A stretch of DNA of 48,590 nucleotides, the filler included, from Jimgerdemannia flammicorona (Eukaryota): the NCBI GenBank assembly GCA_003990765.1. It is 2 parts of 2 records of this genome, joined end to end, with 100 filler letters (N's around TTAATTAATTAA, not from the genome) between each part and the next. Parts side by side here need not be neighbours in the genome. Positions count along the whole stretch, not along the records: positions 1 to 24,250 come from RBNJ01001000.1; 1 more part is not named here. One strand, given 5' to 3'. Below the pieces are notes generated by a model, which was given only the letters and a program-made list of their open reading frames with translations, was not told where the DNA came from and searched no databases. Shown piece by piece: positions 1,080-35,824 of the stretch. The position numbers and the translations under genes were made by a program. Each line of letters begins with the position of its first letter. Positions within the stretch are counted from its first letter, which is position 1.

Positions 1080-2253
1080 AGCCATAATACTTCTTGAGTT
1101 AGTTTTAGCAAATAGTAGTAAGGATGATTGTACCTGAGAGTTTTCATAGTCAAAAGGTAATTTCTTTTATATCTTATATAAGGTAAGATCTTTCCCACTT
1201 CAGCTTTTATAACTATGAAGCTTCTACTATGTTTCAATATACTAGAACTTTGTCTCTTATCTTGATAATCTCTAGAGACCTGTGAATCTTTTCTGTATTA
1301 TTCTGTTATAGTATCTGTATCTTGGTTATATAATTCTTAACCTTTTTTCTGATTTGATATAGTCTTTGAACATTTATATCCATATATTTCTATATAGTAT
1401 CTCTATTAGATAATAAGATTTCTTGAGAACTTTCTTCTCTATATAGTATTTCCTAAGAAGTAAAATAGATACTTTGTGATCAGATATTCCAGAGAGCAGA
1501 TAATACTATTGATAGATAGTGATCCTAATTTTCATAGTTATTGCAGATCTTGATGATGATATTCTTGAGAGTTTTATTAGTCTTATCTATTTCTCTAAGA
1601 GTAATAGGCTGTAGTCTGAATGTACTGGATCTTATACTTCTTGTAGAGAATCTCAAAGAATTGGTTTACAAATTCTATTTCACTGTCTATAGTTACTTGT
1701 AATAGAGTCTTAAATTGGCAGATAATTTCTTTATAGAAGAAATTAGCAATTGACTATATATTGGCTTCTTGAGAGATCCTATCTCTATCTATTTCATAGA
1801 AAGATCTATAATAATAATGATATATTAGTTTCTAGTCAAAGTCAAGGATAGAGGACTAATTACATCTATTACTATGTGGGCAAAGAGTACTAGTTCTATA
1901 TATGCTAATCCTAGAGTCTGATTTCATTGATCTTATTTCTGTTTTTGACATTTGTCACAGATTTTGATAAATTGTCTAATACCTTTCTCTATTTCAGACC
2001 ACTATATTGTTCTTCTTACTTTTTCATAGATATTTATTTCTCCTAGATAGCTAAGTTTATATACTAATTTCATTACTTACTTCTTCTTGTATTTGGGTAT
2101 AACTAATAGCTTTTCTTTCTTCAGTATTTCTCTATTGGTTTTGAATTATTTCTATATTCTATTGATAATCATTTGTATCCATTTTTCCAGATATTGGGGC
2201 ATCTTTTACTGTCCCAGATAGATGATAATTTCATAGTAAAGCTCTTTATTCAT
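1080..2253 (-). pseudogene. Integrase relic of element A
   Basis: Starts MNKELYYEII like B; nucleotide collinearity with B integrase (CDKCQK zinc finger, core, ..LKKYY end); many stops. Confidence 0.8.
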
Positions 2254-3455
2254 TATTGATTTATAGGTTGGAGATTCTTCAGAGTATCTGTAAGAGAGTA
2301 TCTATATTGGCATTGGTTCTTTTAGGATAGTATATGATAGTTATTTATAGGTCTACAACTTCATAATCTATCTAGCATAGATTTCTTTGGATTACTCAGT
2401 GATCAGTAGCTAGGTGAGAGCTGAATGATCTGTCTGGATAGTGAAGTATCTTTTAGTAAGATAGTAGTAGAACTTTTCTATAGTCTAGATAACTGCAAGA
2501 TATTCCAACTTATAAGATTTATATTCTTTTTCAGCTCTGCAGATTCCTTGACTGAAATATATAATGATATATTCTACTTTGTCCTTCTTCTGAGCTAGGA
2601 CTACTCCTAGTTCTTGTATACTTATATCTATCTGTAGAATGAATTCTTGAGTCCAATCAGATCTTCTAAAATGAGTGCTTGGGTCAGTCTGATCTTGAGT
2701 TCATCAAATACTTTTTATTGTCTGCCAGTCTATTGGAACTTGATATCCTTCTTATTGAGTTTGTAGATTAGATCTGCAATATTGGAGAATCCTTTGATAA
2801 ATCTGTAGTAGTATAAGATGAGTCCCATAAAGGCTTGGGCTCTATCTTTCCATATCATAGTAGAAGATTTTGTTCATTATTTTCTGGAAGCTTACTGGTA
2901 TATTGTACATTCTGAATAGCATTTATAGGTAGACATAAGTTTCATCTGGAGTGATGAAGGCTGACTTCTTACTTACTGCTTCTATAAGACTAATTTGATA
3001 GAATTCTGAATATAAATCCAAAGTGCTATAATACTATACTTTATCTTCTAGAGTCACAAGGATATTGCTGATGAGAGGTAGTGGTTGACAATCCTTCTTA
3101 GTAGTCAGATTGAGCTTCCTGTAATCAGTATAGAGTCTTGGAGTGAATTCTTCTAGTTTTCTTTCCTTCTTTAGAGCTAGTACAACCGGTGAAGCCTAAG
3201 GACTGCTGGCTTCTTTAATAATACTGGCTTCTACCATCTGCTTGATTTCTTCTCTAAACCATTCATAGTAGGCTGACAGAATTAGTCTTGCTTTTTGGTA
3301 GATTGGTTTAGTGTCTCCTATATCTATATCATAATAGTAGTATGGGGTTTTTTCTTTGATATCCTTGAAATCTATGGCCAGAATATGTATCCTTAAATTC
3401 ATAGAGTATCTTCTTGAGTTCCTTTTTGAGTAAAAATTCATTTCTAATAATATAG
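2254..3455 (-). pseudogene. Reverse transcriptase/RNase H relic of element A
   Basis: ORF 3196-3441 (DIGDTKPIYQKAR..EASIIKEASSP) matches the B RT N-terminus; downstream sequence collinear with B RT/RH, with an internal deletion. Confidence 0.8.
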
Positions 3456-4948
3456 TATCACATAGTGGTTGTTGAGTCCTTCAAATACACCAGATTCTCT
3501 TCAAGGTGTATCTCTTAGACTAACTCAAGTTGTTATAAGCAAGTTCTTATTGGAGTGCCTTCCCAAGGTCTTATAGTTCTCAAACTTCTTATCTTTAACT
3601 GTCTTGTTATCTCTTAGATTGCTTGTAAGAAAGTGTGTATATTGCACTGAGAGGAACTGACTTTATTTCAGAGGAAATAAGAGAGGTATTTATATAAAAT
3701 ATAATTTAATGGTTGCTAAGATATAAAGCTAAATATAAATTCCAATAACTAAAACTACTAAGTTCCAGGGCTGTCATTATTTAGTATCACATCAAAATAC
3801 CAGTGCTGGAATAATTTTGCATCATCTCAGAATGCCAGTGTTGGCATTATCCAGTATTACATGAGAATACCGGTGCTGGCATTATCCAGTGTAACAAAGA
3901 ACTTAGAGCAGAAAGTTCAGGATTATGGGGGCTTCATCATTATCATCACTGAAGGAGATGAGATCCGCGAATTCGTCATTTTCATATGCTTCGATGTTAT
4001 ATGGGATGATGTCATCGATGATATCATCACATTCAGCTGTGGCGGAGAAATCGGGGACAAGGTCTGGAGCTCTCCAGTCTATGAGGTTCTCTTCCACAAA
4101 ATAAGGAACAAATGTGGGGTCTTGGAGAGATCTAACCTGGATGCTTGGGCCTTGGAATACTGAGATCAATTCTTGCAGGAATTGATCTGGGTTGTCCTGA
4201 AGGATAGGGTGCCAGAAGTCTTCTACTTCTTCGCTGTTGAGGGTGATAGTGGACTGGGCTTCTGTAGCCACCCTGGCTTCTAGTGCATTGATATGGTGGG
4301 ATGATAGGTCTCTGAAATCTGAGACTCTAACATACTCCAAGTTGGGGATCGACCATGGTGCATGCCTGAAGATCTGATGAATCTTCTTAGCTATCCTTGT
4401 TTCGTATATATCCATGGGAGTGGTATCTTGTAGCTCTTGGGTGCTGGCCTGTGGGAACTCCCAGCAGAGGAGGTTTCCTATTTCATACTCCTGTCATATT
4501 TAGAGGTATTCGGTAGTAATGGTGATCCTTGTTTCCATTTTGCAGTGGTAGAGAATAAAGTGATAAGGGTCTGCAGTACCCAGGTTGACACTAGGAGTCC
4601 TTCTTGAGTGGGTCCTCATGGCTCTTCTGATGTCTTGGAACATCCTTTCCTCGACTGAGATACCTTGGTGATTTCTTGACCTTGAGATTTGGCAGGCAGC
4701 AGGCATTTTGTTTGTAGTAAGTCTTTGAGCTATTTTGGGATTAGTGGTTCTTGTTGGTTGCTGCTACTGCGGTTCCTTGATCCTTCTTTTATATTCTTCA
4801 AGATGCTTGTGCTGTGGTCACAATGACTCACAGTTGGTCATCATTGCTCATCTTATATGCTGTATGATCTTCTTGTGCTCCAATCTAGTGGCTTGTAAGG
4901 AAAGGCTGTCTCCTGTGCTGATATCATCATTCTGGAGTCACTGTTATA
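3456..4948 (-). repeat. 3' LTR of element B (1493 bp)
   Basis: Direct repeat of 10646-12137; both termini mutated from TG..CA to TA..TA. Confidence 0.95.
3903..4706 (-). pseudogene. LTR-encoded accessory protein, 267 codons, 3' LTR copy (two nonsense codons near 4493-4502)
   Basis: ORFs 4500-4706 and 3903-4415 share a frame; the stops sit where the 5' LTR copy has Q and W codons. Confidence 0.8.
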
Positions 4949-4958
4949 TCTTCCTCCT
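4949..4958 (-). promoter_or_regulatory. Polypurine tract of element B
   Basis: AGGAGGAAGA on the minus strand immediately before the 3' LTR. Confidence 0.8.
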
Positions 4959-5262
4959 GAATAAGGATCTTCCTGAGCATCCTTATTCATTGGTCTAGTT
5001 CTGAAAAATTTGCTGATCCCATAACCTCTGGCAAGGGGTCAAAAACTGGTATTTATGGGCTAGCATCTTCCCTTTGTATTTTGGCATGATGGTGAAGGGT
5101 CACTCCCTTCATATAGAGCAAGGGCCTGATTCTGATCTTGACCAATCAGTTGACAGTTCGAACTTCTCTGACTGTGAAAGTCTTATGGATGAGTAGTTGC
5201 CAGTACCGTATCCCTTAGAGAATGGTCCAGACAGATAGTCTGCTGGTCACGGGACATGCTGT

Positions 5263-6507
5263 TATGATTTGCGGACTAGAACCTCATGGGCGGTCATCAC
5301 ATTTTGCTTCTCTTGTATAGGTTCGTGGTACTTCTTAAGTCTGTTCCTATGTACCATGGTAGGCAGTATAGTCCCTGAAATTTTTCTAAGCCAGAAGGTA
5401 GTTCCCTTGATATCTTGCACATAGAAGGGTCCTTCTCATTTGGGCTCCAGTTTTCATGACCATGAGGCTTCTATTATATTTTGATACAGTAGAACCTTTT
5501 CTCCAATTCAGATGGGTTCTAGGGCCTTGTGATTCTTTTCCGCATTCTTCCTTATCAGTGCTTGTGACTTAGTGATGTAATCTTCAGCCTTCTTCCTGAT
5601 TTGGTGTAGTTTCCGGATTTCTGCATCAACCCATCTCCAAGTTAGGTCTAGATTTGTAGCTGAGGTTCCATTAGAATCTTCTTCTCTGAAGAGCAGCTCT
5701 CTTGGGGTAAAATGTGTGCTCTGTGACCATATATCTCATAGAATGGAGAGGGTAGTTGGGAGATAGTTATCCCAATTCTCATATGTCTCTGAGATCTTTG
5801 CTAGGATGTTCTTAAGGGTCTTGTTGGTTCTCTCTGTCTGTCCATTTCCTTGAGGGTGGTATGCAGTGGTCTTGATGTGCTGGATCTTGTATTTCTGGTA
5901 TATTATCTTGTGGAATCCATTGACAAATTCTGTGCCATAGTCTGTTGTGATTTGCTTTGGTGTCGTAGTGGCAGATGATTTCTCGGTATAGGAAATTGGC
6001 TATAGAGAGTGCATTGGCTTCTTGTAATGCTCTTGCCTCTATCTATTTGGTGAAGAGGTCTATAATAACTATAATATAGTGGTTTTCTGATAGTGTTACT
6101 GGTAGTGGTCCAATGATATCTATTGCAATGTGGTGGAAGGGGATAGGCTCAATTCTTGACGATCCGGGTGCCTGGTCTTGCTGATCTTGTTTCTGTTTTT
6201 GGCACTTATCACACCCTTTGACAAATTGGCACAGGTCTTCTTCCATCTTGGGCCACCACATGGTTCTTCTTGCCTTATCATATGTGTTGGTTCCTCCTAA
6301 GTATCCTTGCTCATGTACTTCCTTCATTACTTGATACTTCTTGTGTTCAGATATTACTAGCTTTCCTCCTTTTCTGAGTATAGTGTTGTCTAATTCAAAC
6401 TATTTCCAAGTCTGGTTGATGATGGTGATTGTCCAGAGTTTGAGGTGGTTGGGCATCTTCTGCTGCCCAAGGTAGCTGATTAATCCATAGTATAGCTCCT
6501 TATTCAT
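5263..6507 (-). pseudogene. Integrase of element B, separate ORF with its own ATG
   Basis: VHEQGYLGG..WWPKM..CDKCQ zinc finger, IAIDIIGPLP and ITTDYGTEF core, AYHPQGNGQTERTN, EPK*EGPFYV GPY/F motif; a few stops and a frameshift near 5965. Confidence 0.9.
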
Positions 6508-6508
6508 A

Positions 6509-9500
6509 TTAAATAGTCTTGATGGAGATGTTTCGGGGTGTCCTTGAGAGTACATCAGCATTGGTGTTGGTCTTTCCTGGGTGGTGCTTGACAGTACAGT
6601 CATATTCTTGCAGCCTGTAGATCCATCTGACATATATTCCTTTGGGGTTCAGAGTGTGGAATAGCCAGGCAAGAGCGGAATGGTCTGTTTGAATGGTGAA
6701 GTGTTTTCTAGCTAGGTAGTAGTAGAACTTGTCTACTGCCCAAACTACTGCTAAGTATTCAAGCTTGCATGACTTATAGTTCTGTTCTGCTCCATGGATA
6801 CCTTGGCTTGCATAGGAGATAACATATTCATGTCCATCTTTCTTCTGAGCTAGGACTGCTCCAAGTCCTATAGCACTTGCATCTGTCTGCAGGATGTATT
6901 CTAGGTTCCAGTCTGGTCTTCTGAGGATGGGTGCTTGGGTCAACCTGGTCTTGAGTTCATTGAAGATTTCTTGGTACTCCTTGGTCCATTCAAATTTGGT
7001 CTCCTTCTTCAGTAGCTCATAGATAGGTGCTGCAATGTTGGAGTATCCTTTGATGAATCTTCTGTAGTAGCTGGCCAGTCTAAGGAAGGCATAGACTTCT
7101 GTGGTTGTTCTGGGTCTTGGGTAGGCTGCAACAGCCTCAATCTTCATAGGGTCTGTGTGGATTCTGGTCTGGTTGATGAGGTGTCCTAGGTAGGCGATTT
7201 CTTGAGCTGCAAACTTGTATTTCTTGGGCTTGATGTAGAGGCCATACTCCTTAAGCCTCTTAAGGGCTAGCTGTATATGGTTGATATGTTCCCATGCAGT
7301 GTTGCTGAAGATGATCACATCATCAATATAGACAAAGAGCCATTTTCCAATCTCGTTGCTGAAGACTCTGTTCATCATTTGCTGGAAACTTGCTGGGGCA
7401 TTGCACATTCCAAATGACATTCACAGATAGATATAGGTAGCATCAGGTGTGATGAAGGCTGATTTCTCACTAGCATCTTGAGTGAGACTGATCTGATAGA
7501 AGCCTAAGAACAGATTCAAGGTGGTGTAGTATTTAGCTTTGCTTTCAAGGGTGGTAAGGATTTCTTGAATATTCAGCAAGGGCTGCCTATCCTTCTTAGT
7601 GATGGCATTGAGTTTCCTGTAGTCAATGCAGAGTCTTGATGCAAACTCTCCAGACTTGCTTCCTTTCTTCGGGGCAAGGACAATGGGTGAGGCCCAGGGG
7701 CTGATAGCTTGCTTGATGATTCCAGCTTCTTCCATTTCCTTGAGTTCGGCTCACAGCCACTCTCTGTAGGCAGGTGGTATGGGTCTGGCTTTCTGGTAGA
7801 TAGGCTTTGTATCACTAGTATCAACTTTGTGGTGGTACTTGGGTTCTTGATTGTGGATATCCCTAAAGTCTGTAGCAAGTACTCCTTCATTCTGGTACAG
7901 GATCTTGAGAAGTTGTTCCTCTAGGGGAAATTTTTCTCCAATGGTATATGTGTGCTTGTTCTGGTCCTTGTCTTTCTTATGCTCAAGTTCAGTAATCTTG
8001 GTGGCAGCATAGGCTCCTCTTCCAGTAGATCCAAAGCCTTGTTCTCCTCTCTTGGTCTTGATAAGTTCAGTGGCCTCTATGATCTTGGGCTTCTTGATTT
8101 CGTAGATCAGCATCTGGCCAATCCTGTCATGCTTCTTGACTTCGAAGGGGGTGGTGTGATTATGATTTCTGACTATGAGAAAAATCTCACCAGTATAATC
8201 AGGGTCAATTACTCCTCCTTCAACTGAGATTTCGCTTTTGGCCAGACTGCTCCTGATCTTGATAATTCTGGTATAGTTTTCTGGCAGCTTGACTCCAATT
8301 CCAGTACCAAGTAGGGTGGTGGTCTGTAGTTCGAGGGTAGCATCTTGGATGCTGGCAAGGTCCATTATTATGGCTCCTTCAGTCTTGTATTCTGGGATCT
8401 TGGCTTCAGGGTGAAACTTCTTGATCTTGAGGATGATGTCTGATTCTTGTTCCTCCTCATCATCACTGTCAGCTTGAAGCTCTGGGGGCTGGTCATCTTC
8501 TTCAGCTTTCCTTTTTGCTTCGGCAGCTTCTTGCTCATATTTCTGTTGGCAGATTTTCCTGACTTCGCTGATACAGGACCAGCAGTCATTCAGGTGTTCG
8601 GAGCAGTACATTCTAGTACCATGGGGGCATCTTCCTTGAGGGGCATACCCATCGATGATCTTGTTATACCACTGCTCATCTGTGAGCTTGGGTGTCTTGT
8701 TCTTGTTCTTGTTCACTGAGTGCATGAAGACCTCTGTGTCTTCTTCATCTCCTTTCTCCATGTCTGACAGGACTCCTTTGTGGACATTGATAGAAACTCG
8801 TACCTTTCTTCCTCTGTAGTTGATCTGCATCTTCTGGGCATTGAGGTCAATGATGGCCTTGGCCTTGTGAAGCCATTGGTTGCCAATGAAGATGTCATAG
8901 TTGGTGGTGCTTGTAACAATCATGTCTACTGGGATGGTAGCTCCTCCTATCTTAATGGGGACTTCTCAGATTTTGCCAAGGGGGGTAGCTCATATACCAT
9001 CTGCTGTGACATAGATCATCTTGGTGGACTCTTCAATATCCCAACCTAGGCAGTCAATTGCCTTCTTGCTCATGAGGCATCCTCCAGCACCAGTATCAAT
9101 GATGGTATCAAAGATACAGTCTTTGATCTGGCAGAGGGTATAGGCTGATGTCTTACACTGGTCTTCGGATTCTTCATCTGAGTTCTCAGATTCTTCTTGT
9201 GCATTGTAAGCTTCTACAATCTTGTACTCTTGATTCTTGACAATAGTTGCAAGTCCTACTCTCAACTGCTGTCTGAAGGCAGAGACTTCAGCTAGCTGCC
9301 CAAAAGTGGCATTGACCTTCTGTTCCTTAAGGTCCTTATAGATGTCATACTGGTGGATCTTGGTCTTGTACAGCTTCTGTTCCTTCTTGCTCTCACTTTC
9401 TCCTGAGACTGGAGTAGTGCCTTCAATAATTTGGTAGGCAGCTTTATCTAACTCTATGTCTTGATCAATCTCCTCATTTTGGGTCTTGCTTTGAATAGTG

Positions 9501-10525
9501 ACAGTTGAAATCTTCTTTGGTCTTCCAACTGGCTTGCTGTTGCTCTTCTTGTCATAGGGCTTGGACCAGGTTCTGGTACCTTCAGTAGCAGGGTAGAATT
9601 CAAGCTCCTCATAGTATTCTTCATCATCAGTGTCACTGATCTCCTCGATGACTACTGTATTAGTTTGTTCTCTGGTTCTGCTAGCATTGCTTGGTTGGGC
9701 TTTGTGTCTCGTTTTGGTCATGCAAATCTTTGCATAGTGGCCTTCTTCTCTACATCTAAAGCATGTGATATTGCATTCTTCTGTAGCAGCTGCAAATCTC
9801 TGTACTGGTCTCCTGTTGACACTTTGGACTTCTCTAATAACATCACCAAGGTGTACAGTCATCTTGGTGAACTGCTTGGCAAGTTCTTCCACTGGGTCAG
9901 CTTTGGCTATCTTGGGGGTAGGTGGGGTTGGTTGTCTGTTTACAACTGTGGTAGGTAAGATACTAGTTGGCTTTGATGGCTCCATTTTTATGCCAGTTAT
10001 TTTCTCCATTGAGTGTTCGGCAGGGTGTCTGGCAGTCCAATATCTCTGTACAAAGACCACTTTCTGATCAAGGGTCAGTATAGCTGGGGTAGACCGAATT
10101 GCTAGGGCAATTTCAGGGTGAACTCCTTTGAGGAAGGTTGAATCTGCTATTTGTTCCTTGAGGTGGTCATCATAGCCAGCCAAGACAATCTGGTGACAGA
10201 TTCAGGTATAGAATGAGTTGGGATCTTCACTAAGTCTCTGGCAGATAGTATTGAGTTGATCCTTGAGAGCTTGCTTGATCTCTTTAGTATAATATGTTGT
10301 TCTAAGGAAGGCCTTCATATTGGCAAGTTTGGCTGCACTAGCATCAACAATGGTGGCTGCATTGAACTTGTCTCTAGCAGATCCTCTGAGACTGACTGGT
10401 AGAAGGGCCAATTGAGCATCCACACCAAGGGCTCATATAGTAGTGAATTGTTCAAAGTCTTCAATGAAGGTCAGGATTGACTCTTCAGTAGTATATTCAT
10501 AGAATGTAGGGGGGTGCATTTCCAT
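6509..10525 (-). pseudogene. gag-PR-dUTPase-RT-RNase H polyprotein of element B, one reading frame broken by nonsense codons
   Basis: ORFs beginning at 10423, 10183, 8923, 7735 and 7420 share a frame; motifs CFRCREEGHYAKIC, IIDTGAG, dUTPase motifs, RLCIDYRKLN, YIDD, TDAS, TDHSAL, NADVLSR. Confidence 0.93.
8020..8430 (-). other. dUTPase domain in element B pol
   Basis: Trimeric dUTPase motifs RSSLA, GGVIDPDYTGEI, RIGQ, RGEQGFGSTG. Confidence 0.93.
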
Positions 10526-10645: not shown

Positions 10646-12137
10646 TGTCACATAGTGGTCACTGAGTCCTTCAAATACACCAGATTCTCTTCAAGGTGTA
10701 TCCCTTAGACTAACTCAAGTTGTTATAAGCAAGTTCTTATTGGAGTGCCTTTCCAAGGTCTTATAGTTCTCAAACTTCTTATCTTTAACTGTCTTGTTAT
10801 CTCTTAGATTGCTTGTAAGAAAGTGTGTGTATTGCACTGAGAGGAACTGACTTTATTTCAGAGGAAATAAGAGAGGTATTTATACAAAATATAATTCAAT
10901 GGTTGCTAAGATATAAAGCTAAATATAAATTCCAATAACTAAAACTACTAAGTTCTAGGGCTGGCATTATTTAGTATCACATCAAAATACTGGTGCTGGA
11001 ACAATTTTGCGTCACCTTAGAATGCCGGTGCTGGCATTATCCAGTGTTACATAAGAATACCGGTACTGGCATTATCTAGTGTAACAAAGAACTTAGAGCA
11101 GAAAGTTCAGGATTATGGGGGCTTCATCATCATCATCACTGAAGGAGATGAGATCCACGAATTTGCCATTTTCGCGTGCTTCAATGTTATGCAGGATGAT
11201 ATCATCAATGATGTCATCATGTTCGGCTGTGGCAGGGAAATCGGGGACAAGGTCTGGAGCTCTCCAGTCTATGAGGTTCTCTTCCACAAAATAAGGAACA
11301 AATGTGGGGTCTTGGGGAGATCTAACCTGGATGCTTGGGCCTTGGAATACTGAGATCAATCCTTGCAGGAATTGATCTGGGTTATCCTGAAGAATAGAGT
11401 GCCAGAAGTCTTCTACTTCTTCACTGTTGAGGGTGATAGTGGACTGGGCTTCTGTAGCCACTCTGGCTTCTAGTGCATTGATACGGTAGATGATAGGTCT
11501 CTGAAATCTGAGACTCTAACATACTCCAAGTTGGAGATTGACTATGGTACATGCCTGAAGATCTGATGAATCTTCTTAGCTGTCCTTGTTTCGTGTATAT
11601 CCATGGGAGTGACATCTTGTAGCTCTTGGGTGCTGGCCTGTGGGAACTCCCGGCAGAGGAGGTTTTCTATTTCATACTCCTGCCACATTTGGAGACATTC
11701 GGTAGCAATGGTGATTCTTGTTTCCATTTCATGGTGGTAGAGGATAAAGTGATAAGGGTCTGCAGTACCCAGGTTGACACTAGGAGTCCTTCTTGAGTGG
11801 GTCCTCATGGCTCTTCTGATGTCTTGGAACATCCTTTCCTTGACTGAGATACCTTGGTGATTCCTTGACCTTGAGGTTTGGTGGGCAGCAGGCATTTTAT
11901 TTGTGGTAAGTCTTTGAGCTATTTTGGGATTGGTGGTTCTTGTTGGTTGCTGCTACTGTGGTTCCTTGATCCTTCTTTTATATTTTTCAAGATGCTTGTA
12001 CTGTGGTCACAATGACTCACAGTTGGTCATCATTGCTCATCTCGTATGCCGTATGATCTTCTTGGGCTCCAATCTGGTGGCTTGTAAGGAAAGGCTGTCT
12101 CCTGTACTGATGTCATCATTCTGGGGTCACTGTTACA
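10646..12137 (-). repeat. 5' LTR of element B (1492 bp)
   Basis: Minus-strand TGTAAC...GTGACA termini; TATAAATA at 10877-10884, AATAAA at 10852-10857, ~33-bp tandem repeats at ~10960-11085. Confidence 0.95.
11093..11895 (-). pseudogene. LTR-encoded accessory protein, 5' LTR copy (stop at 11542-11544 and 1-bp deletion near 11490)
   Basis: ORFs 11542-11895 and 11093-11461; 803 bp versus 804 bp in the other LTR. Confidence 0.8.
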
Positions 12138-14640
12138 ATAGCTATACTTGTTTGTAATTTCCTCCTTCTTGTGGTCTAGTTCAGTAATCTTGATACTGGT
12201 GAATACTCTTCTTCCTATAGATCTAAATCTCTTCCTTCCTCTCTCTGTTTTCTTAAACTTTTTGACTTCTATGATCTTTAGTTGAAGAACTGGAAAGATT
12301 AATATCTGTATCAGTCAATTCTTCTTCTTAATTGGAAATAAAATTATAGAGTTATGGTTTTTAGTAATAAGTAGTATTTCTCTGATATAATCTGAATCAA
12401 TGACTTCTCCTTCAATAGTAATCTCACTCTTGGCCAGGCTACTTCTTGTCTTGAGGATTCTGATATGATTTTTTGGAATAGTTATCTTCAGACTAATTGT
12501 AAGTAGAGTAGTTATCTGGGACTCAAATATGTTTTCTTCTTTATAGTAATATCTATTCTAGCTACATTCTCTGACTTATATACTGATAGAACTATATTAG
12601 AGTGGATTTTCTGAATCTTGACCTTGATTTCTTCTTCATCCTCACTATCTTCTAAAAGAACCAGTAATTTATCATTTTCTTCCTTCTTCTTCTCTTCTCT
12701 TGTCTATTTTTCAAGGGCCTTCTGTCTTCTTTCATAGTAGATCTTCTTATTGTATTTATACACTGATAGTAATTATTAATATACTTCATACAGTATATCT
12801 TGATTCTATACAGACTTCTTGTGATATATATCCTTCAATGATTCTCTTATACCAGTCTTCTTTACTAATCCATTCAACTTTCTTCTTCTTTTTTTGAGTA
12901 GTCACTATAGGCTTCTTCTTGCTCACTTTCTTCTTTCTCCATTTCAGAGAGTACTTCTTTGTTAACATTAATGGAAATCTGCATCTTCTGTCCTCAGTAG
13001 ATAATTTACATCTTCTGAGCATTCAGATTAATTATTGCTCTGGCTTTATGAAGTCATTGGTTGCTGATAAGGATATTATAGTTGATTGCATTAGTTACAA
13101 TAATATCTACTGAGATAGTTACTCCTTCAAACTTAATAGAGACATCTCAGATCTTTCTCAGAGGTATGGCTCTTATACTATCTACTGTGATAAATACCAA
13201 CTTGGTTGCTTCTTCAACCTCCCAACCTAGGCAGTCTGCTACTTTCTTGCTGAGAAGACATCCTCCTACTCTAGTATCAATGATGACCTTAAAGATTCTA
13301 TCTTCAAATTGACAGGTTGTATAGACAGAGGTCTTATAATTATCTTTACTTTCTTTTCCTAAGTCTTCTTGAACATTGTTAGCCTCAGTTATCTTCCAAC
13401 CTTACTTCTTAGTTATCTCAGTAAGTCTATATCATATTTACTATCTGAATGTGGAGATTTCCACAAGCTGACCAAAGGTTGCATTGATCTTTTATTAACT
13501 GAGGTTCTTGAAGATATCGTACTTGAAAGTTTTGGTCTTACAAAGCTTCTTCTTCTTTTCTCCTTTACTAGCTGGAGTAGTTCTTCAAATGATATCTTGG
13601 ATAGTCTGTTCTAACTCTATATCTTGATTCATTTCTTTAGCTTGGCTTTCTATAGCAGTCTCCATCTGTTTCTCTACTAGATTCTTCTTGGGTCTTTCTG
13701 GTGATCTCTTGTAGAGTTCCTTATAAAAATCTTTCTTAGTAGTCTATATAAGATAGACCTCTTATTATTCTTTATCTGATTCTTCAATCTCTTTGAAAGT
13801 GATAGTATTGACCATTTTCTTATTCCAAGTAGTATTGCTTAGCTGTACCTAGTACTTAATTTTACTCATATATTTATATAAGTATTAATCTTCTTCTCTA
13901 CAAATATAGCAGATATCTCTCTTTTTGTCTAAGGTGGTGATAAACTTCTGAACTAGATGGTAATCTTTTTCTCTGATTTCTTTTACTATATCTCCTAGGG
14001 TCACTATTTCTTTACTACTTAGTAGCTCTTAGTTGAGGTATATTTCAATTGATCACTATGTTAGAGATTATACTAATTGCCTTAAGTGCTTCAATTTTAA
14101 CTCCAGTGACTCTTTTTATTATATAGTCTTGTAGATATCCAACTATCTAGTATCACTAGATATAGATAACCTTCTGTACCAGATCCAGGACTATTGGTGA
14201 TAAGCAGATAGCTATGACTATCTTTGGGTAGACTCTCTTCATAAAGATTATCTTAACTACTTGATCTCTAATTATAGTATCATAATCTGCAAGAATTATC
14301 TAATATTGAATTCTGATGTAGAATATATTTAGATACCCACTCATTTCTTGATATATTGTATTGAGCTGATTCTTCAGAGCTTACTTAATCTTATCTATAT
14401 AGTAGGTGGCTCTAAGCCAGGCCTTCTATACTATCAGCACTGTATCATTATCATTTCCTATATGGATTATAGCTGTAAATACTGCTCTTGCTGAGTCTTG
14501 GAGACTGAAGAGCATAAGGACTACTTACTGCCTTGCTGTCAGAGTTCTTATAGTAGTATATTACTTGAAATTATCAATAAAAGTGATAATTGATTCATCT
14601 AAAGTATATCTGTGGAATACTGATGGTCTCATATCTATCT
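12138..14640 (-). pseudogene. gag-protease-dUTPase relic of element A
   Basis: KVIIDTRVGGCLL (protease) and RSSLAKSEITIEGEVIDSDY (dUTPase, ~12205-12625), collinear with B; many stops. Confidence 0.8.
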
Positions 14641-16096: not shown

Positions 16097-16228
16097 TGTG
16101 ACGTACACAATTGACAATGGAGTACTGGTGACTGCTAAGATCAGACGACATAATGGTGTGACAATCAAATAGACAGCCTGACCTATTAGGTGATCATCCC
16201 AAAAGAAGACAAGATGATCTGAGCCAAA

Positions 16229-17289
16229 ATGAAGACCACGTTATTTAAGGAACCATACTCCGCCTCAGGAATCAGCACCAAAGAACCAAGTACCCACCAC
16301 ACAATACCTCCCATTTGCCAAACCAACCAGACCTCCCACCACTCTACCCCTTTGCCTGGCCCAAAGACCCTGATCTTTGAAGCTATCAAGAAGGCCATCT
16401 GGCGCCCGGATACTTCTGAACACTTGAACTTCTATACTGAGGACCTTGGATACTTCATCAACTACTGGTATATAATGACCCAACAGCTCAAAGATACTAC
16501 TGAACGAATGACCCTCTGGCATGACTATGAAATCGGACACCGCCTCCGCAATGAGACTCAAGAAGACGACCAGGAAGACCTCATTGCCGAAATGTTAACC
16601 ACCAGCCAGCTAATCAAGAGAGCCCTCCGTGTCCATCAAATCTTCCGCCATATCCCCTGGGCTATAGCACACTTGCAAGGAGTAACAGCTGGCAGCCTCT
16701 CCCGCCTTTCAACTGAAGATGCTGACTGGATAGAATCTGAAGTAGCCAATGCTATTGGCAGCAACTGCATCACCATAGGAAGCCAACAAACCGAACCTAC
16801 TCAGCCAGGTTTCCACACTACCCCACTCCGAGACAACCATCAAGGTCACCTAATGAGTCTTATGGAGATATTTGAAGGACCGCCCATCACTATAGAGACA
16901 CCTGTTGGAGCTACCCCAACCACCCACCACCTGTCAGCCACAATTCACACCTCATCATTTGGGAACCAAATCAAGAAGAAGCCCAAGAAGTTCCTGTCTT
17001 TGAAGAGGAGGCCCAAGAACTCCAAGACCCTGCCCCTGAAGAAACCCCCTCTGACATTAAAACTGACGAGCCTTCAGAAGAAGAAGAGGAGCAACAGAGA
17101 GTCTATCAGTCCTCTGTCCGCATTCAAGCTGTTCAAGGGTTGGAGAATGTTGTTGAAGATGACTGGCCACTTTTCTACCCCCTCACCTCTTGGCCGGCGC
17201 TTCCCCCCTTTGAGGAGAGATATGATGAAGAAGAAATCACAACCCAGCAAGATTTGCCTGCCACGGACAAAGGGTACTATTTCCTCTAG
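16229..17289 (+). pseudogene. LTR-encoded accessory protein of element C (frameshift near 16920-16945)
   Basis: N-terminal ~235 aa homologous to the B LTR ORF; the acidic tail NSHLIIWEPNQEE..KGYYFL* continues in another frame to TAG 17287-17289. Confidence 0.75.
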
Positions 17290-17319
17290 AGTACCGCCCA
17301 TCAGCTATGAGAACCCAGC

Positions 17320-17560
17320 TTTTGTCAGCAAGTCCGTTTCCAGCATTGCTACCCAGTACCACCATTTTCAGCATTTTGTCAGCAGATCCGAATTCAGCAT
17401 TGCCACCCTCCACAACTGTTTCTGGCAACAATCATTGTATCATGTCAGCTCATCCGAATTCAGTGTTGCTACCCAGCACAACTATTTTCAGCATTGCTAT
17501 CCAGTGTCGCCATTTTCAGCGTTTTGTCAGCAAGTCCGAATCTAGCGTTGCTATCCCCTA
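17320..17560 (+). repeat. Tandem ~55-65 bp repeats in LTR C
   Basis: Repeated TTTTGTCAGCA(A)GTCCGAATTCAGCATTGCTACCC units. Confidence 0.8.
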
Positions 17561-17859
17561 CAACCCAATCTGTAGTAAACAATAGCCTGTATCTTGCATC
17601 GTGCAAACCAATAGCATAAGTTCGCCACAATGTAGTATACCTTAGCCTTAGTCATACCCCCTCTCCCATAGCTAGCAAACTTGTATAAATAACCCATATT
17701 CTTAGAGTGAATAAACCTCAGTCAACTGGTTTTGAGAAATAACCACTGCCTCCAAGAGACCGGATAAATTCTGAGAACAAGATAACTAGAGCAACGATCG
17801 CTCAAGGTTTGAGTTAAAGAATTTTCTCTTGCCATGGAAAGAAAGAAAACATTACAAGA

Positions 17860-18115
17860 ACCGCCGCCATTCAAGACCCAAGACCCAGCCAAGGATTCAA
17901 GGCTATGACCACTGCCATTCGACCGCCGCCATTCGAGACCTGAGACCCAGCCAAGGATCAAAGAACCCAAGGAATCCAAGTTACCCAGCCAAGGATTCAA
18001 GACACAACCGCCATGCATTCAGACTGCCATTCGGACCTCCATGCATTCGACTGCCATTCGAGATTCAAGACCCGGAAGACCCAGAAACCCAAGGATACCC
18101 AGCCAAACAAGACCA
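17860..18115 (+). repeat. Second degenerate tandem array in LTR C
   Basis: Repeated ACCGCCATTC(A/G)AGACCC and CCCAGCCAAGGATTCAAG modules. Confidence 0.7.
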
Positions 18116-18572
18116 TAGCCTAAGACCCTCCAAGATACTCGAATGACCGCCAAAGACCCAAGTTATCCTGCCCTTTCAAGCTAAACAAGATGGACGAGTG
18201 AACCGTCAACCTCCATTTTTCCCGACCTACTGTGCCACGAACCACTTAAAGTCAAGACTGTCGCCCACTTTAATTGACCGCATAAAGAGCAAGACCATCA
18301 AGACCGTCGCCACCAAGTTATTCACCACCTTTTTCTACTGGATATTGAGCCATTGAACAATCAAACAACCTCATCTACTAAACAATTGAGCTATCATCGA
18401 ACGAACTCCTGCTATCAAATATCACACGAATCGAACAAGCCGATCACGTGACCATCGACCTGTAACTGCCGCGAACGTCATCAATGCATTCAGTTATCCA
18501 TCACGTGCTTCACCAGTGGCACACATTGAGCCGTGCAGTCGAAGTTCATTATACATAATCAATGCCACATTT

Positions 18573-18590
18573 TGGGGGCTCAACTGGGAA
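18573..18590 (+). promoter_or_regulatory. tRNA-Pro-like primer binding site of element C
   Basis: TGGGGGCTCAACTGGGAA, 3 nt after the LTR end, resembles the classical Pro PBS TGGGGGCTCGTCCGGGAT. Confidence 0.75.
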
Positions 18591-18803
18591 AGTTTTCAAA
18601 AGACTTGACCATTTTGCTCAAGAACCCAGCTATCTACAGTAGAGAACTTAGCAGGACCAAGTCAGCAACCAAACCAGGGGCAGCAACAGCCCTCCTCAGC
18701 AGAAAAGAAAGCCCACACCCTTGTCAGGACAGTAGCCAGGACCCTATTAAATACCAGTAGCCAGAAAACCAAATCAGAAGAAAGAAGTGACCCAGATTAC
18801 GGT

Positions 18804-21800
18804 TTGACTTCAAGAGAAAGGAGACGACTCAGAGGACAACCAGAACCACCCCTTCAGATCCAAGACTTAGGCCAAGAAGAAGAAGAGGATATCCCCAAGG
18901 AGTATCAGACCTTTATCCATAGGAAGAACTCAGACAGAAGCAACTACATAACTACTGTTGTCACTCGAGTCACTCCACTAGACCGAGTATACTTTGAAAC
19001 ATCAGAAGGAGAAGAGGACTATCATCCATATCAACCAGAACAAGACGACGATTGGGGATCAGACCATCAAAGGAATGAATTCAACCTATACTATTATCCA
19101 GACAGTGACACTGACCCACAGCAGCAACCAGATGAACCAGACCTCACTACTTCACAACAGCAAGGGGCAGACGAACTCACTATCAGTTATATCAGTCCAC
19201 TCCCACCATTAGTTGCCCGAACTTCAGTACCCTAGTCACTCACACCTCGCCACTATCACCAGTCAATCAGAAGATCTCCACCACTACTCAGAACTTCAAC
19301 CCCAGCATTAATTAGAAGAGCCAGATTACCCTCACCCTTACCAAGACACCACCCTCTGCCAGCACCACTAGTTCATCAAGTACTAGCACCACCACCTTTC
19401 CTATCACCCTGAGGATCCGTCAGATCCCCTACCCCTGAACAATACTCAGATAGTGAAGATGAGCCAGACATGAGCTACCTTCAGAAGTTCCATGGTGCAG
19501 ACAATGAAGACATCGAGGAATTCTTTGGAGAAATTGAAGTTCAAGCAGCCGCCAAACAATGGGATGCTGCAAGAAAACTCAGAATTGTGGAGTCACTCCT
19601 GAGAGGACCAGCCCTACAGAGGTATAATCAAGCCAAGCAAGCCAGAGGAGGAATCCATACAGAGGAACTGAATGATGGCCTTCAACCTGATAGGAACCAT
19701 GTAGCAAGGTACATGATTCATAAAGCCTGGCTCCGTGCCCAGTTCAATGGATTCGAGTGCCAACAAGAAGCACAGGAGGCTTTGACCTATATGAGCCAAG
19801 CCGCCAATGAAACCCCTAAGAGTTTCTATCATCAGATTCAAGCTCAAATAATCAAGGTGAACCTTCAACCAGCAGTCCAACTGGCCCTAGCCTCAACTAC
19901 CTTCCTCAATGGCTTATACCTAGAACTCCAAAGGCAAGTTATCAGGATGGGATATCGAAACATTGAACAGCAAGTTGCTGGAGCACAAGGATGTTGGGAA
20001 GCAGATTATAGACCAGTACAACAAGTATAAGGCTATCCTGAGCCAATCCGAGCTGAAACCCTAAGGACCAGAGGAACAACTATGGAGCAAGAGAATGCCT
20101 TCCTCAGAGCCCAGATAGCCAACTATGAGAACAGACCAGCACCCACAAATCCGACTCCATTCAGACAACCACAGCAGCAGCCACCATCAAGAGTTCAAGA
20201 AGACCCTATGACAACACTCACCAAGCAAATGAAGGACCTGGCCATTGCGGTTGCTCAGCTGAACAACCAAGGTAGAAGACAATAAGACTACCATCATGAT
20301 AACAGACCAGACTACTGGCACCAAGACAACAGAGGTCCTGCCCCCACACCACCAGCTGCAACTATAGCCTCATCAGCAACTAGTTCCTATAGTCCCACCT
20401 GCTTCAGCTGTGGAAATCAAGGCCACATCCAGAGGAATTGTCCAAGGAACCAATCCACCCAGTCCAATGACAGAAATGTCAACCTCTTTCAGGTAGATGA
20501 AGAGACTCAGGAAATGGAAGAAGAAGCAGCCTGGCTCCATGGTCAAGAAGATGACATCTACCCATACTTCGAGGCTTTTCCATCCAAGGTGACATGGGAA
20601 GCTGCCCCAGCAGAGACCAGAGGACGAGGAAGACCACGAAGGAACCCCCCACCTCAACTGCCAGTAATGGTATCCACCGGCAAGCATCCACGACATGGCC
20701 ATTCTTCTTCAGACACTCCACAAGAACAGGAGAAGCGAGCTAGAAGAGATACTCCTGAACCAGAAGCCGGACCATCTAGGACAACCCCCAGCTCTACTCT
20801 GCCAGACTATGAAGAAGATGAGCGTATGAGCATAGAATCTTCAGCTGATGAAATGCCCATCAGGAATGAGAGACTACACCCCAAGGGACCAAGACACCGA
20901 AGAAGCAGCAAGCCCCATGCAGCAGCCTCACTTTGGGAACATATCCGCCTACAGAATGCTGGTCTTACAGTTGAGCAAGTCCTCAAGAATGCACCAGAGG
21001 TCAGGCGAAAATTCCTGAAAGAAGCCAAGGAAGATACCAAGAGACTTCCAGTCCAAGGACCATACACTCAAGAACCTAGCACTATCCATACAGTCCATGA
21101 GAGCCAGCAACATGAACATCAATCTACAAGACTCGCCGATGGAAAAGTGTATGGTGAAAATGCCAGAATTCTTATCGATACTGGAGCAGCAGTATGCATC
21201 ATCACCCAAAGGATGTTGGAGCGAATTGGATGGGGAATAGATAAAGGAACCAAAGCAAGAGTTATCATGGCCAATGGATCAGCTTCCACACCCCTTGGAC
21301 TTGTCAGAGGCATCCCCATTCAAGTTGGAAAGGCCTGCCTCAATGTACCCAAAGCCATCATGACCCCCGCAACCTCCTATGACCTGATCCTGGGGACTGA
21401 CTGGTTAAGCCAAGTTGGAGCCAATGTAGATATCAAGAAATAACTCCTGGTCTTCTCCATTCATGGACAGAAGCACAAGGTGCCCATTGACTCGAAAGGA
21501 TCATCAAAAAAGACAAATCAAGCCTCAGAAACAGAATGGCAAGGACATGGTGACACCCCTACCACTACTGAGAATGAAAGCGAGGCCAATTTCCTACAAG
21601 AACTAGGAAGTGATTTCGATGCCCCAAGGGACCAAGAAAGTGAACAAGAAGACTCTTTCATTGGAGTTATTGGTGTTGAAGGCCTGGAAGAAACCATTGA
21701 TAGAGCCATTAATGCAAGGACAGCACTTGAGTTTGCAGGACCTTCTGCTCAACCACCACCACCACTGGTAGAAAATCAGATCATGCGAGCCTTTCATCAA

Positions 21801-24250
21801 GGCATATGCGAACACTTCATCAGCTTCCACTCACTAAGAGATGATTGCAGCAATTGCCGAATCCTGGATCTCAAGAAGATTCCAATGCCAGAAATTGATG
21901 ACAAGGACGAATTGAAGCAAGCACCATCCCACAGCCGAATGCAACCTCCAACCCCGAAGACCTTCAAGAAGACCTATAAGGAAGGACAGAAGATCCTCGC
22001 CTGCCAAACATTCGAGTCCCTTACCATCGAAGGAGAAAGCAACAGCTCTTACACCATCACTCGGGCCCTCCAGATCACACAGCTCACCTATGACAAGTAT
22101 TGGAAGAGATTCCCTACCAGTAGGGAGGTCAAACAGCGAAATGAAGACTTCATCAAGAAGGGACATTGTGATTGTGAAAAAACCTTTACCTGCTACTAGT
22201 GTGAACATCGAGATATTCACCTCAGCGAAGATGTCTACAAGAGCCGAGTCAAGAGAAAGGATCCCGCCCTGCAAGAACCTTGAATTCGCTGGGCCTGTCG
22301 GAAGTGCAAAGAAATCAACCATGAAGGAGACTGCAAGTTCAAGAGCAAGACCTCTATCTGGGACCTACCATTGGAAGTTCTTGCCATCATTTGCTGGTAC
22401 TGCCACCCTCATCAAGGAAACGAAGGTATCAATCTTGCCTTCATCCTTATGGAAGCTCTGGACCCTCTAGGAAAGACTGGATTCAATTATACAAGAAACT
22501 CAAAGACAGGAGCTCACTGGCCTTTCTTCAAACTGGAGCGCATAGACTTCTCACCTACACTGGCAACAGCTGAGGCGCTATTTCTCAAAGCTCAACCAAT
22601 TATCCAGGTCAAGCTGCTTTTACCCTGGGCACAGCCACCTCTTGCACAAACAGAAGGATCAGTTGGTTATGACCTCTGCCTCACCTACCAAGCAAGAATC
22701 TGGCCCAGAAGTACCAGGACTTTTGACCTACAGATTGCACTCGCTATACCACCTGGGCATTATGGACAGTTGGCCTCAAGATCCTCATTGGCAACCAAAG
22801 GAGTCACAGTAGAAGGAGGAGTCATCGATCAGGACTACCAAGGTCCCTTGAAGGTCATCATCCGCAATTCTAGTAGAACCTGCCGATTCTTCAGTCCTAT
22901 GGAAGTCATCTGCCAAATTCTGTTTATCAAGACATCACAGCTGACCATCCAAGAGATAGATCAACTAGAAGATACCAATAGAGGACAAGGAGGCTTTGGA
23001 AGCACCAATAGAAATATATGGACACCACCTATCGAGGTTCATTTGGCAACAGTTGCTCAATTCCGACAAATGAGACCCCATATCTGCTGCCCAATCTGAG
23101 CAAGAGAAGACATCCCCCTGCAGCCCTACCAGCAAAAAGGCCTAGATATGCATCTATCAGTAGAAGCAAACAACTTGATATTTGCACTATTACTGGAGCT
23201 TCAAAAGGAATACCACATCCTCCTGGCTGAAGAACGAATTCATGACCAGATGTCACCAATCTACATCCCTATCAGAAACTCAGGCTTCAAAGTGATAACT
23301 ATCCCCAAGGGAACAACACTGGGATATTTCAAACCACTGATAGACACCTACGAGGAAGAAGTCTTCGAATTCTTGGGAAATGGCAAGCCCTCTCCGGTCA
23401 GACTGACGGTACCAGGGAGGAAGACTCAGCAAATTCAGCAATCAAAGCCATCAACATCGAGACAACTCTAACCAAGGACCAGCAACAACAAATACAGGAG
23501 TTGATAGAGGAGTACAAAGATATATTTACCACCACATACGATAACTTCCCACCATATCAATACGGAGAACACCCTATACATACTGGAGATGCAAGACCAA
23601 TCTGACAATGACCCTACCGAACACCACATCATCTGATTGAATTCGAACAACAATACATAGACGAAATGCTACGAAATGGAGTCATCAGACCATCATCAAG
23701 CCCCTGGGCCTCACCAGCAATCATAGTACCAAAGAAAGGAGGATGGAGATTAGTCGTAGATTTCAGAAAACTCAACAAAGTCACCACAGAAGATGCCTAC
23801 CCACTGCCAAGAATTGATGACCTCATCAATGCTCTTGGAAAAGCCAAATACATGACCACTACCGACCAGTTCCAAGGATTCCAAGTAATACCCATTGCCA
23901 AAGAAGATATCTGCAAGGCGGCCTTCATCACCAGACGAGGACAGTATGAATACCTACAAATGCCCTTTGGACTCTGCAATACACCCGCCTCATTCCAACG
24001 AATGATGAACTATGTCTACCAGGACCTCATTGGAAGAAATGTACTAGTGTACATAGATGATGTAATCATCTACTCTGAGACATTCGAGCAGCATTTGCAA
24101 GACCTCCGTGAAGTATTCAATACCATTTGAAATTCAGGACTCAGACTCAATGCCAAGAAGTGCTTCTTTGGAAAACATCAAGTCAAATATCTGGGATATG
24201 TTGTCTCAGCTCAAGGAACACATGCCGACCCCTGCAAGGTGGAGAAAGTC
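18804..24250 (+). pseudogene. gag-PR-Cys-rich-dUTPase-RT polyprotein of element C
   Basis: ORFs starting 18804, 19470, 20082, 20514, 21480, 22371 and 23148 share a frame; motifs CFSCGNQGHIQRNC, ILIDTGA, DLILGTDWL, dUTPase; frameshift near 23400; RT SPWASP, VDFRKLN, MPFGL, YIDD. Confidence 0.92.
22605..23010 (+). other. dUTPase domain in element C pol
   Basis: GSVGYDL, SRSSLA, GGVIDQDYQG, ICQ, RGQGGFGST. Confidence 0.93.
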
Positions 24251-24350: not shown

Positions 24351-25550
24351 TTTTTAATAGACTCAATGTCCTGCAGATTTTTATTAGAAGAGAACCTAGA
24401 CTATATAGGCCAAAACCCTCTCCCATCACTCACCAAGCACTGCCCTCTCTATGAATCTAGACTAACTATTGTCTAGCAGCTCAATCATATCAGATACAGC
24501 AGGGCCTATATTGGCCTGTATCTCATTCTGTATACATACTATACTCTTCCTACTACCAGGGAGAACTCAGCCATATGCTAATGACTGAAAGTATATGCCC
24601 AAAACCCCAATGTATATATAAGGCCATGCTTGAGCCAAATAGAGACTAGCCTCTGCCACTCTAAAGAGAATGATAGGCAAAGAAAAAACTCTTATCAAAG
24701 TACATCATGGTGGATAGGATTTGGTTCTCTCAGATGAGGTGAGTAGAGGACTTATACATAAGGTAGGAGAAGACCCCCAATACCCCACTACTCAAGCCTG
24801 CAGACCTTGATCATGTTGCTATGTCAGCTCCCAGTTCTAGTTGAGTATAGTTAAGATGCCTAAAATAGGTAGCCTTGGGCCCCCCAACTCCCTCTCAATG
24901 ACTAGAGTCTAACCTGCCAAATTACCAAAAGAAGCTGAGAGTGTTACCTACCACCTAACTGCTCTATACCAATCAAAAGGCCCCACTGAAGCAGCACCTA
25001 CCCCAGCCCCTATGACTGCCCCCAGTCTGGTACCCTACTGGTTCACCATTATTATCCTTCCTCTTATCTGTAACAGCCATCTCCCCTCCTATCCTGACAA
25101 TACCTGAAAAACAATCACCTATGCCAGAACCACACTTACCAGGAAGCTTGCCAAAGTCAGAGGGCCCCACTACAGACACTGAGGATCTGCAGGTAACCTA
25201 TACTAAGCACTTGATACCCAAGGTCAGTCAACTCTCTATGTAGCCTGTGATACATATACTGAGATAATACCTTGTTGATGATAGCAAAAGGAAGAAGGTG
25301 CCACACCAAAATGAGTATACCCCAGATGTAGCCAAAGGTATCAGAAACTGTGAAAAAGTGGAGAAGATACTGATCTGATACTGATAAAGGGGTAACTCAT
25401 TACTATTGCCTCCCTCCCACTGTCTTATAATAGGTATAGTAAACTAATCTAAGGTAGAGAGGGTAGTAATTGTAGAAAGTGGACTTAGAAGGTTGTCTAC
25501 TAAGCAATTATGACCAGTAAGATAGCAGTGAAAGAGACAGTAAGCAAAGT
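24351..25550 (-). mobile_element. Poly(A) retroposon family X, copy 1
   Basis: Collinear with 42623-43866 over its whole length; T run abuts the gap. Confidence 0.8.
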
Positions 25551-32900: not shown

Positions 32901-33634
32901 CCAGGCCCATCCCCACTTCTCCCAAAGTACCCCTGTCCCAAAAGGCCCCAGTAATCTGACCATAGGCACCACTCCACTTTCAGTGACTTCCAAACATCTC
33001 AGCCCCAGCAGCTGGCTATCAGAATCCAGTTGATCCTAGTCCCCAGGCCCCCAGCCCAATGTGTATAAACCCTCCTATCCCCCCAGTACTCCCTACCAGT
33101 ATCCACCAGTGCACTGAGTCTTTCTACTTCCTCCCACATTGCCAGTCCCCCACTCCTGCTCTCAGCACCCCATCCTCCATCTGTTCTATCCATCAGTATA
33201 TCCCGAACTATATTGAAATCTCCCCTAAGCATATCCACCCCAGCTTCTGCAAGAATCACACTCTCCTGGAGACCCTTCACCCAATCTATATACTCACTCC
33301 ATACAGTAGGGCAGTAACAGGAGCTAACTGTAACTGGCTCTCAGCCTGCATGAATCCACTCACCCCAGACCAGCCTCTCTCCCCAGCTCCTCATATCGCT
33401 TAACTCCCCTCTGCCCTTCCAAACCAGAATTCCAACCTTGCCTTTCCAAATTGCCATGCCTCCCCATTCCTTTGTCCATTCTATCCTATCAGAATCATCC
33501 TCACACCTGACATCCTGCAAGAGGAAGAGATCAGCCTCCAATTCCTTCAGCTAAGTAAAAATGTTCCTATGTCTAACAGTACCCCATAGCCCATTCACAT
33601 TCAAAGAAAAAATGTTGGTTATACTGTTCATCAT
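29960..33634 (-). pseudogene. LINE ORF2: APE endonuclease, reverse transcriptase, C-terminal Cys/His motif
   Basis: SLNVNGL, LLQD, RGDFN, TRINWIL; APGEDGLP, LDQEKAYD, GVPQGDPLSP, FVDN (degenerate YADD), YLGI; C-terminal PEHWLEEC. 3' limit approximate. Confidence 0.9.
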
Positions 33635-33649
33635 GAAATACATTTTGTT

Positions 33650-35685: not shown

Positions 35686-35824
35686 GTTGTTAGTCTCTTT
35701 TCTCCAAAAACAATGTTATAAGTGTCTTCCAAAGGTTGTATAACCTGAATAGTACTGATATTATATATTTTATCAATAAAATTGCCTCTTCCTCTTATAA
35801 GGATATATATGAATATATACAATA

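Follow-up and report, generated by a model that had tools for sequence, protein, structure and literature searches.

A 48,590-nucleotide (nt) stretch of DNA from Jimgerdemannia flammicorona (assembly GCA_003990765.1), here called the window, carries two nested retrotransposons of the Ty3/gypsy type, A and B. Comparison with their relatives shows both to be dead copies of a clade in which a first predicted open reading frame (ORF1) encodes Gag, protease (PR), optionally a dUTPase, reverse transcriptase (RT) and ribonuclease H (RNase H, RH), and the integrase (IN) forms a second predicted cistron with a conserved AUG of its own. This separate integrase gene is real and clade-wide, and apparently undescribed. 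The integrase is probably produced by termination-reinitiation at an overlap between the ORF1 stop and the IN AUG, a reading that we base on the arrangement of the two codons in the core group of the clade.

The integrase cistron of elements A and B

Both elements lie on the minus strand. B is full length and sits within the older A, since parts of A flank it on both sides; the two are 65.8% identical across RT-RH-IN. The features of these elements, and of a third, C, are as follows (LTR, long terminal repeat).

10646..12137, minus strand: 5′ LTR of B, about 1.49 kb, TG...CA, 93.8% identical to the 3′ LTR
3456..4948, minus strand: 3′ LTR of B; the target site duplication (TSD) ATAG (4 bp) is at 3452-3455 and 12138-12141
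6500..10525, minus strand: ORF1 of B, gag (CCHC)-protease-dUTPase-RT-RNase H, a single frame of 1341 codons with no integrase
6500..6556, minus strand: junction of B; Asp of ADxLSR at 6556, private TAA at 6511-6509, IN ATG at 6507-6505, family stop TAA at 6502-6500
5262..6507, minus strand: integrase ORF of B (H2C2, core and GPY/F-type motif), about 415 codons, its end position counted from the translation
2246..2302, minus strand: junction of A; Asp at 2302, IN ATG at 2253-2251, ORF1 stop TAA at 2248-2246, with ATGAATAA as in B
1084..2253, minus strand: integrase of A, heavily decayed, located by tblastn
2347..3384, minus strand: RT-RNase H of A, decayed
12138..14638, minus strand: gag-protease-dUTPase of A, beyond the B insertion
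16223..24250, plus strand: element C, of a third dUTPase-bearing gypsy family, ending at the gap of N's ahead of its junction

The IN ORFs of A and B both begin MNKELYY, and the distance from the ATG to the first base of the ADxLSR Asp codon is 49 nt in both, which places IN in the +1 frame. A preliminary description of this DNA had proposed just this, a separate +1-frame ORF with its own ATG at the same offset in the two elements, and larger samples bear it out. From the source genome (231 Mb, 35,354 contigs) we took, for each of the A and B families, the 30 best-scoring of about 1600 candidate loci, the window copy included. All 30 loci of the B family and all 30 of the A family show the offset of 49. 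The ATG itself is retained in 29 and 26 of them, respectively, and position −3 of the AUG is A or G in every locus of both families. Exact-match patterns combining the motif and the IN start gave 1213 matches genome-wide, with an offset of 49 in 1170, a shorter one in 29 and a longer one in 14; patterns of this kind require an MNKE-like start, and a fused family with a different linker would escape them. Reversed-pattern controls gave 0-1 matches.

The preliminary description erred on the stop codon. It had the RNase H frame of B end in KTI-TAA-t-ATG. That TAA (6511-6509) is a private decay of a Gln codon, present in 2 of 30 B-family loci. In contigs from two soil runs the undecayed letter accounts for 570.5 of 570.5 and 130 of 134.5 of the contig depth. 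In both A and B the stop of the family is a TAA within ATGAATAA that begins 5 nt downstream of the first base of the start codon (AUG-AA-UAA), so that ORF1 and the IN ORF overlap by 8 nt instead of following the pattern stop-t-ATG. Reading the decayed codon as the functional stop had hidden this overlap. Four contig sets aligned to the junction of B revealed no joints and no common indel there; small insertions near 6482-6486 occur in one contig of one run.

RH and IN are in frame in 21 of the 1213 genome matches, through 15 one-base and 6 ten-base deletions at varied places in several subfamilies. As these cases are scattered and are mirrored by 10 one-base insertions, we regard them as ordinary indels.

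In its termini, its TSD and the order of its domains B is of the Ty3/gypsy type. By Pfam, B and intact relatives have the domain order PR-RT-RH-IN with gypsy-type RT/RH and an H2C2 integrase, and the TG..CA LTRs and the TSD of B fall within the Ty3/gypsy norm (TSD of 4-6 bp), one LTR terminus having decayed to TA. Its ORF1 has seven premature stops and no frameshift, and its integrase is disrupted by stops and by a private 2-nt deletion near 5964. Of the 92 differences between its LTRs (3458-4946 vs. 10648-12135), 89 are transitions, mostly at CpA (42), CpG (23) and CpC (21), a pattern of methylation-like or repeat-induced point mutation (RIP)-like decay. The LTRs also contain ORF-like sequence (3903-4763, minus strand, and 11093-11952) ending in DLISFSDDNDEAPIILNFLL, possibly an extra ORF that extends into the LTR; a Pfam search of the stretch 3906-4493 gave no match.

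Relatives and phylogeny

The split is not peculiar to dead copies. Among metagenome relatives we took the best 80 of 435 loci and counted the 48 with RNase H upstream of IN, leaving out 32 that were too short or had no RH hit. In none of the 48 is RH fused to IN; in two, L132 and L161, just one in-frame stop separates RH from the IN ORF. In the intact relatives L092, L094, L101 and L106, gag-PR-dUTPase-RT-RH forms a single ORF of 1281-1746 codons that contains no IN domains; the next ORF, where scanned (L094, L101), contains H2C2 and rve domains. The IN ORFs of the intact relatives are open for 371-543 codons. Aligning the junction across genomic copies and relatives, as the preliminary description had suggested, thus left the split standing: fusion was found in no young intact copy, only in the few deletion-like genome matches. 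The integrase within a Pol polyprotein, the canonical trait, is not what these elements have.

Conservation points the same way. When 14 IN homologues of 40-90% identity were aligned, Met1 did not vary in any of the 15 INs (down to 40%), and the HHCC and D-D-E residues were invariant or nearly so. In a search of longer proteins fusions appeared only at 36% identity or below (6 of 8 hits), and the two closest hits were IN alone. Among the 120 matches listed in an RT-RH search, all nine with at least 52% identity lack IN domains, and one at 51% is fused. An annotated RT-RH relative in Rhizophagus clarus is IN-less and ends 10 residues past the motif start. Long matches from profile searches were rejected as relatives, being ordinary fused gypsy proteins (the four checked are pseudoscorpion gene models), and were used as controls.

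In a tree of joined RT-RH and IN alignments, 16 split elements fall on one side of a branch and 26 fused ones on the other (SH-aLRT 99), with two split subclades supported at 100 each. The RT-RH tree gives the subclade containing B a support of 1.0 with no fused member. The split clade nests among fused gypsy-type proteins in trees built without named reference clades or a true outgroup. Viral contigs gave no relative with a single-protein query. With an alignment query they gave one, L171, in which RT-RH overlaps a separate chromodomain integrase by 38 nt; it is distant, lies outside the clade and was set aside, its split possibly being of independent origin.

The family of element C has the split in another geometry. 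The junction is readable in 22 of its 30 loci (six others were too short or had no hit, and two were missed by the motif search), and in all 22 it reads CAA-ATGA-A, a −1 overlap (AUGA) at an offset of 80. One genome thus carries both the +1 geometry (A, B) and the −1 geometry (C).

The preliminary description had favored a programmed uncoupling of RNase H and integrase over decay. The evidence supports this: the split is family-wide, is present in intact relatives whose frames are open over long stretches, and is common to a clade.

Stop-start coupling and the making of integrase

We compared the 28 loci closest to B by IN (the core group) and the 20 loci of a sister subclade. In 24 of the 28 core loci the ORF1 stop lies within −8 to +5 nt of the IN AUG, in six geometries that use both shifted frames.

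AUGnnUAR (−5): 3 loci
AUGA (−1): 9 loci
UAAUG or UGAUG (+2): 6 loci
10-nt overlap (−7): 3 loci
11-nt overlap (−8): 2 loci
UGAUCAUG (+5): 1 locus

Of the remaining four loci, two have an earlier stop but retain UAAUG/UGAUG after it, one has no ATG, and one is decayed (+47). The length of the core tail past the motif ranges between 16 and 45 codons, so that as the AUG shifts the stop shifts with it. At the level of clusters (70% identity) the coupling holds in 15 of 16, as against 351 of 1016 control pairs of an internal AUG and an off-frame in which a stop falls in a like window (p ~1e-6; 0.002 when only six geometries are counted).

These arrangements suggest the following scheme. Ribosomes would terminate at the ORF1 stop, and some of them would reinitiate at the IN AUG, which this stop overlaps or adjoins (in A and B as AUG-AA-UAA). 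Since Gag and RT-RH are made 1:1 from one ORF, the restart would be an expression switch that keeps IN below Gag. The integrase would then enter the particle without a covalent Gag-Pol link, plausibly in cis on its own template RNA, although this step is speculative.

The spacing agrees with that of known restart systems: stop and start lie within about 20 nt, as in caliciviruses and influenza B, in the A, B and C families and in 24 of 28 core loci. In six loci a hairpin ends directly before UAAUG/UGAUG (z −3.6 to −7.2), its shape being kept while the sequence has changed (L099 vs. L110); in that window 7 of 28 loci have z < −1.5, vs. 1-2 in each of eight other windows. An ORF1 tail peptide resembling ERLxKxGP is retained in P0212, P0216, P0232, L099, L104, L110 and L114. 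It coincides with the hairpin in some loci, and the constraint may be on the RNA or on the nascent peptide. Tracts of CCCC occur 5-45 nt upstream in 13 of 27 core loci, as against 122 of 1155 windows; since Pro codons and kinship may account for them, they were given no weight.

Several observations tell against the restart scheme or against the single origin of the split. No upstream structure was seen in the three closest relatives of A and B (z 0.3-1.0; pseudoknot-free folding). The TURBS upstream motif UGGGA pairs with a loop of 18S rRNA; within 100 nt of the junction it occurs in 1 of 28 core loci, and the host 18S segment has a U-rich loop at the presumed pairing site. The p values given above are optimistic, because the lineages are related and because an M-N start of IN yields AUGA and AUGAAUAA automatically. 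Position −3 of the AUG is C in 24 of 24 C-family matches. In the sister subclade direct coupling is seen in 2 of 20 loci only and the other 18 have spacers of 40-830 nt, from which it appears that a free IN AUG also functions without tight overlap; in 4 of these 18 the spacer holds two small ORFs chained by short overlaps, the second ending −5 to +7 nt from the IN AUG. As to the trees, the joined one came from a quick search with a limited set of fused elements and no bootstrap; support for uniting the two split subclades is 0.08 in the RT-RH tree, and support for one split clade in the IN tree is weak (0.55).

Of the routes named in the preliminary description (reinitiation, frameshift or spliced mRNA), reinitiation fits best. 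That the integrase is translated by scanning from its own mRNA, either spliced to an LTR leader or transcribed from an internal promoter in RT/RH, with the overlap a by-product of compaction, seems rather unlikely to us. It would suit the favorable −3 context in the A and B families and in several spacer-type relatives, as well as the sister-subclade spacers. Foamy viruses provide a precedent: their enzymes are made apart from Gag and packaged via RNA, all of Pol being separated from Gag by a spliced message. Signals are present in part: 12 of 30 A-family loci have a YAG 10 nt ahead of the AUG, and YTRAY is found within 70 nt in 21 of the 30 A loci and 16 of the 30 B loci. However, no acceptor is conserved. 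The nearest YAG in the B family is at −69 (30 of 30 loci), with one or two AUGs in between in 29; in the C family it is at about −122 in 23 of 24 matches, and across 27 core relatives it ranges from 0 to none within 150 nt. Nor would an mRNA of its own predict a stop that tracks the AUG through six geometries. The sequencing runs listed as matches included no RNA run, which is not informative about expression. Extra third ORFs of LTR elements do usually come from spliced messages, according to a passage in PMC5408684.

A programmed frameshift near the RNase H end, +1 in A and B and −1 in most relatives, would give a low-rate RT-RH-IN fusion, alone or beside a restart. Of the 30 B loci, 29 do have an IN frame that stays open for 47 codons upstream, and phase-correct −1 heptamers (X XXY YYZ) are found 15-24 nt before the stop in 3 of the 12 lineages of −1 geometry (L098; L102/L106; L104/L110/L115/L116), where 0.22 are expected from the ORF1 body (p ~0.0015, a post hoc value whose background rate may be too low for the C-rich tail). 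The latter observation also weighs against restart as the sole route, and −1 frameshifting is a possible minor source of fusion in some of these lineages. The other nine lineages, including the sisters L099 and L111, have no heptamer, windows 0-50 nt downstream of the junction are not unusually structured, and an invariant Met1 is not expected within a linker. The IN frame of L108 and L126 is closed one codon ahead of the AUG, and the direction of the shift differs between families of one genome; on these two grounds frameshifting cannot be the general route, and we consider it improbable as an explanation of the junction. Decay is more remote still. A frameshift in a defective ancestor could have been spread by non-autonomous copies borrowing integrase: A and B are dead copies that have accumulated many stops, the LTRs of B differ mainly by transitions (the 89 of 92 above), and in L132 and L161 a single in-frame stop lies between RH and the IN ORF. 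Yet intact relatives keep ORF1 and IN open, the HHCC and D-D-E residues are conserved, the 1341 codons of B ORF1 are free of frameshifts, and no fused helper family is seen among the nearest relatives. The intact relatives in particular largely refute the idea, to which we attach hardly any probability.

Termination-reinitiation has precedents. Caliciviruses and influenza B restart at stop/start overlaps of this kind (passages in PMC10275272). The fungal victoriviruses and hypoviruses restart without TURBS motif 1, and the retrotransposons SART1 and L1 restart for their second ORF (parts of PMC5972666), and in the hypovirus CHV1 (UAAUG) the efficiency is 2.5-4.4% (as given in a part of PMC2699510). 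All these viruses, like the core group here, place overlapping or adjacent stop and start codons after a long ORF (AUGA, UAAUG or short overlaps). They are RNA viruses; the core group lacks the calicivirus TURBS motif in all but 1 of 28 loci and has a hairpin in one subgroup only. Victoriviruses have a pseudoknot in the 32 nt before the overlap; here, with folding confined to hairpins, there is a hairpin in the six UAAUG/UGAUG loci and none in the A/B relatives. SART1 uses UAAUG, and the 63-nt spacer of LINE-1 resembles those of the spacer-type relatives (PMC5972666, in part), but both are non-LTR elements whose second ORF holds RT, whereas here it holds integrase alone.

With canonical Ty3/gypsy elements (Metaviridae) the clade shares TG..CA LTRs, a 4-bp TSD, CCHC gag, the order PR-dUTPase-RT-RH-IN and the H2C2 and rve domains. 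A dUTPase between PR and RT is already known (passages in PMC2864245, PMC5408684 and PMC6431247). The dUTPase-bearing fungal elements (PosPlaTy3-5, Phanerochaete, Tuber Tmt1) and bdelloid Juno, Vesta and TelKA have IN inside Pol, as far as described in parts of PMC2864245 and PMC5408684. Their coding region is one Gag-Pol ORF or separate gag and pol ORFs, whereas the clade breaks between RH and IN and its core group leaves gag/pol unbroken. Other candidates for the same design were rejected: Troyka has CG..CG ends and 3-bp TSDs, unlike B (a passage in PMC12440569), the pol of lokiretroviruses includes IN (a passage in PMC7947760), and where PMC2582038 and PMC4427930 speak of a ‘separate ORF’ they mean gag/pol or a LINE. 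A search of the open literature, with Repbase, subscription papers and supplements outside it, turned up no LTR element described as having a separate IN cistron.

More tentatively, we may be dealing with an old and widespread fungal LTR lineage that has moved its translational control from the gag/pol to the RNase H/IN boundary, would use stop-restart on a polycistronic genomic RNA to make IN (and small extra ORFs), and would package free IN without a Gag-Pol link; the chances of this whole picture seem to us a little short of even. The integrase of LTR retrotransposons and most retroviruses is brought into the particle by its link to Gag-Pol, from which the protease later releases it. Fission yeast Tf1, with one ORF, keeps IN in the polyprotein and lowers it after translation. 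The present clade, which apparently does without this link, is successful: this genome has more than 1000 copies of the junction, relatives occur in soil metagenomes, and Rhizophagus clarus has the IN-less RT-RH mentioned above. Such a clade raises testable questions about the packaging and stoichiometry of IN. If stop-restart and free packaging hold, this is a replication design that we have not found described for LTR retroelements. The six natural geometries are material for studying reinitiation after long ORFs in fungi. A practical consequence is that annotation pipelines would class such intact elements as broken or integrase-less.

Extra ORFs and other features of the window

Some relatives have further ORFs. 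A third ORF overlaps the IN end in L100 (5960-6652), L104, L110 (1345-2004), L114, L115 and L120; the products are homologous (118-230 aa, 23-72% identity), and Pfam gave no match at the two loci scanned. Another related ORF3 occurs in L144 and L155, and in L144 an AUGA links it to IN. One or two small ORFs, with no family assigned, lie between RH and IN in L147, L154, L157, L162 and L163 (807-1190), forming chains with short overlaps. ORF1 extends 265-397 codons beyond RNase H in L144, L145, L155 and L137, and Pfam saw no family in the extensions of L144 and L155. In the sister subclade, L134 (645/646), L136 (327/328) and L140 (3165/3166) have a single in-frame stop just ahead of the protease-RT ORF, the upstream gag being confirmed in L140; gag/pol read-through may possibly accompany the IN split there.

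Elsewhere in the window there is a non-LTR-type RT element on the minus strand (30400-36400 and 38550-39970; RVT_1 at 31244-32317) with partial repeats nearby, and a host gene for a GH72/X8 glucanosyltransferase, intron-split into three ORF pieces (45989-47846, minus strand), which suggests a fungal source. A 1.2-kb repeat is present in three copies of 74-80% identity (24353-25533, 37363-38506 and 42692-43860), and an inverted repeat at 25920-26198 has 85-nt arms 9 nt apart.

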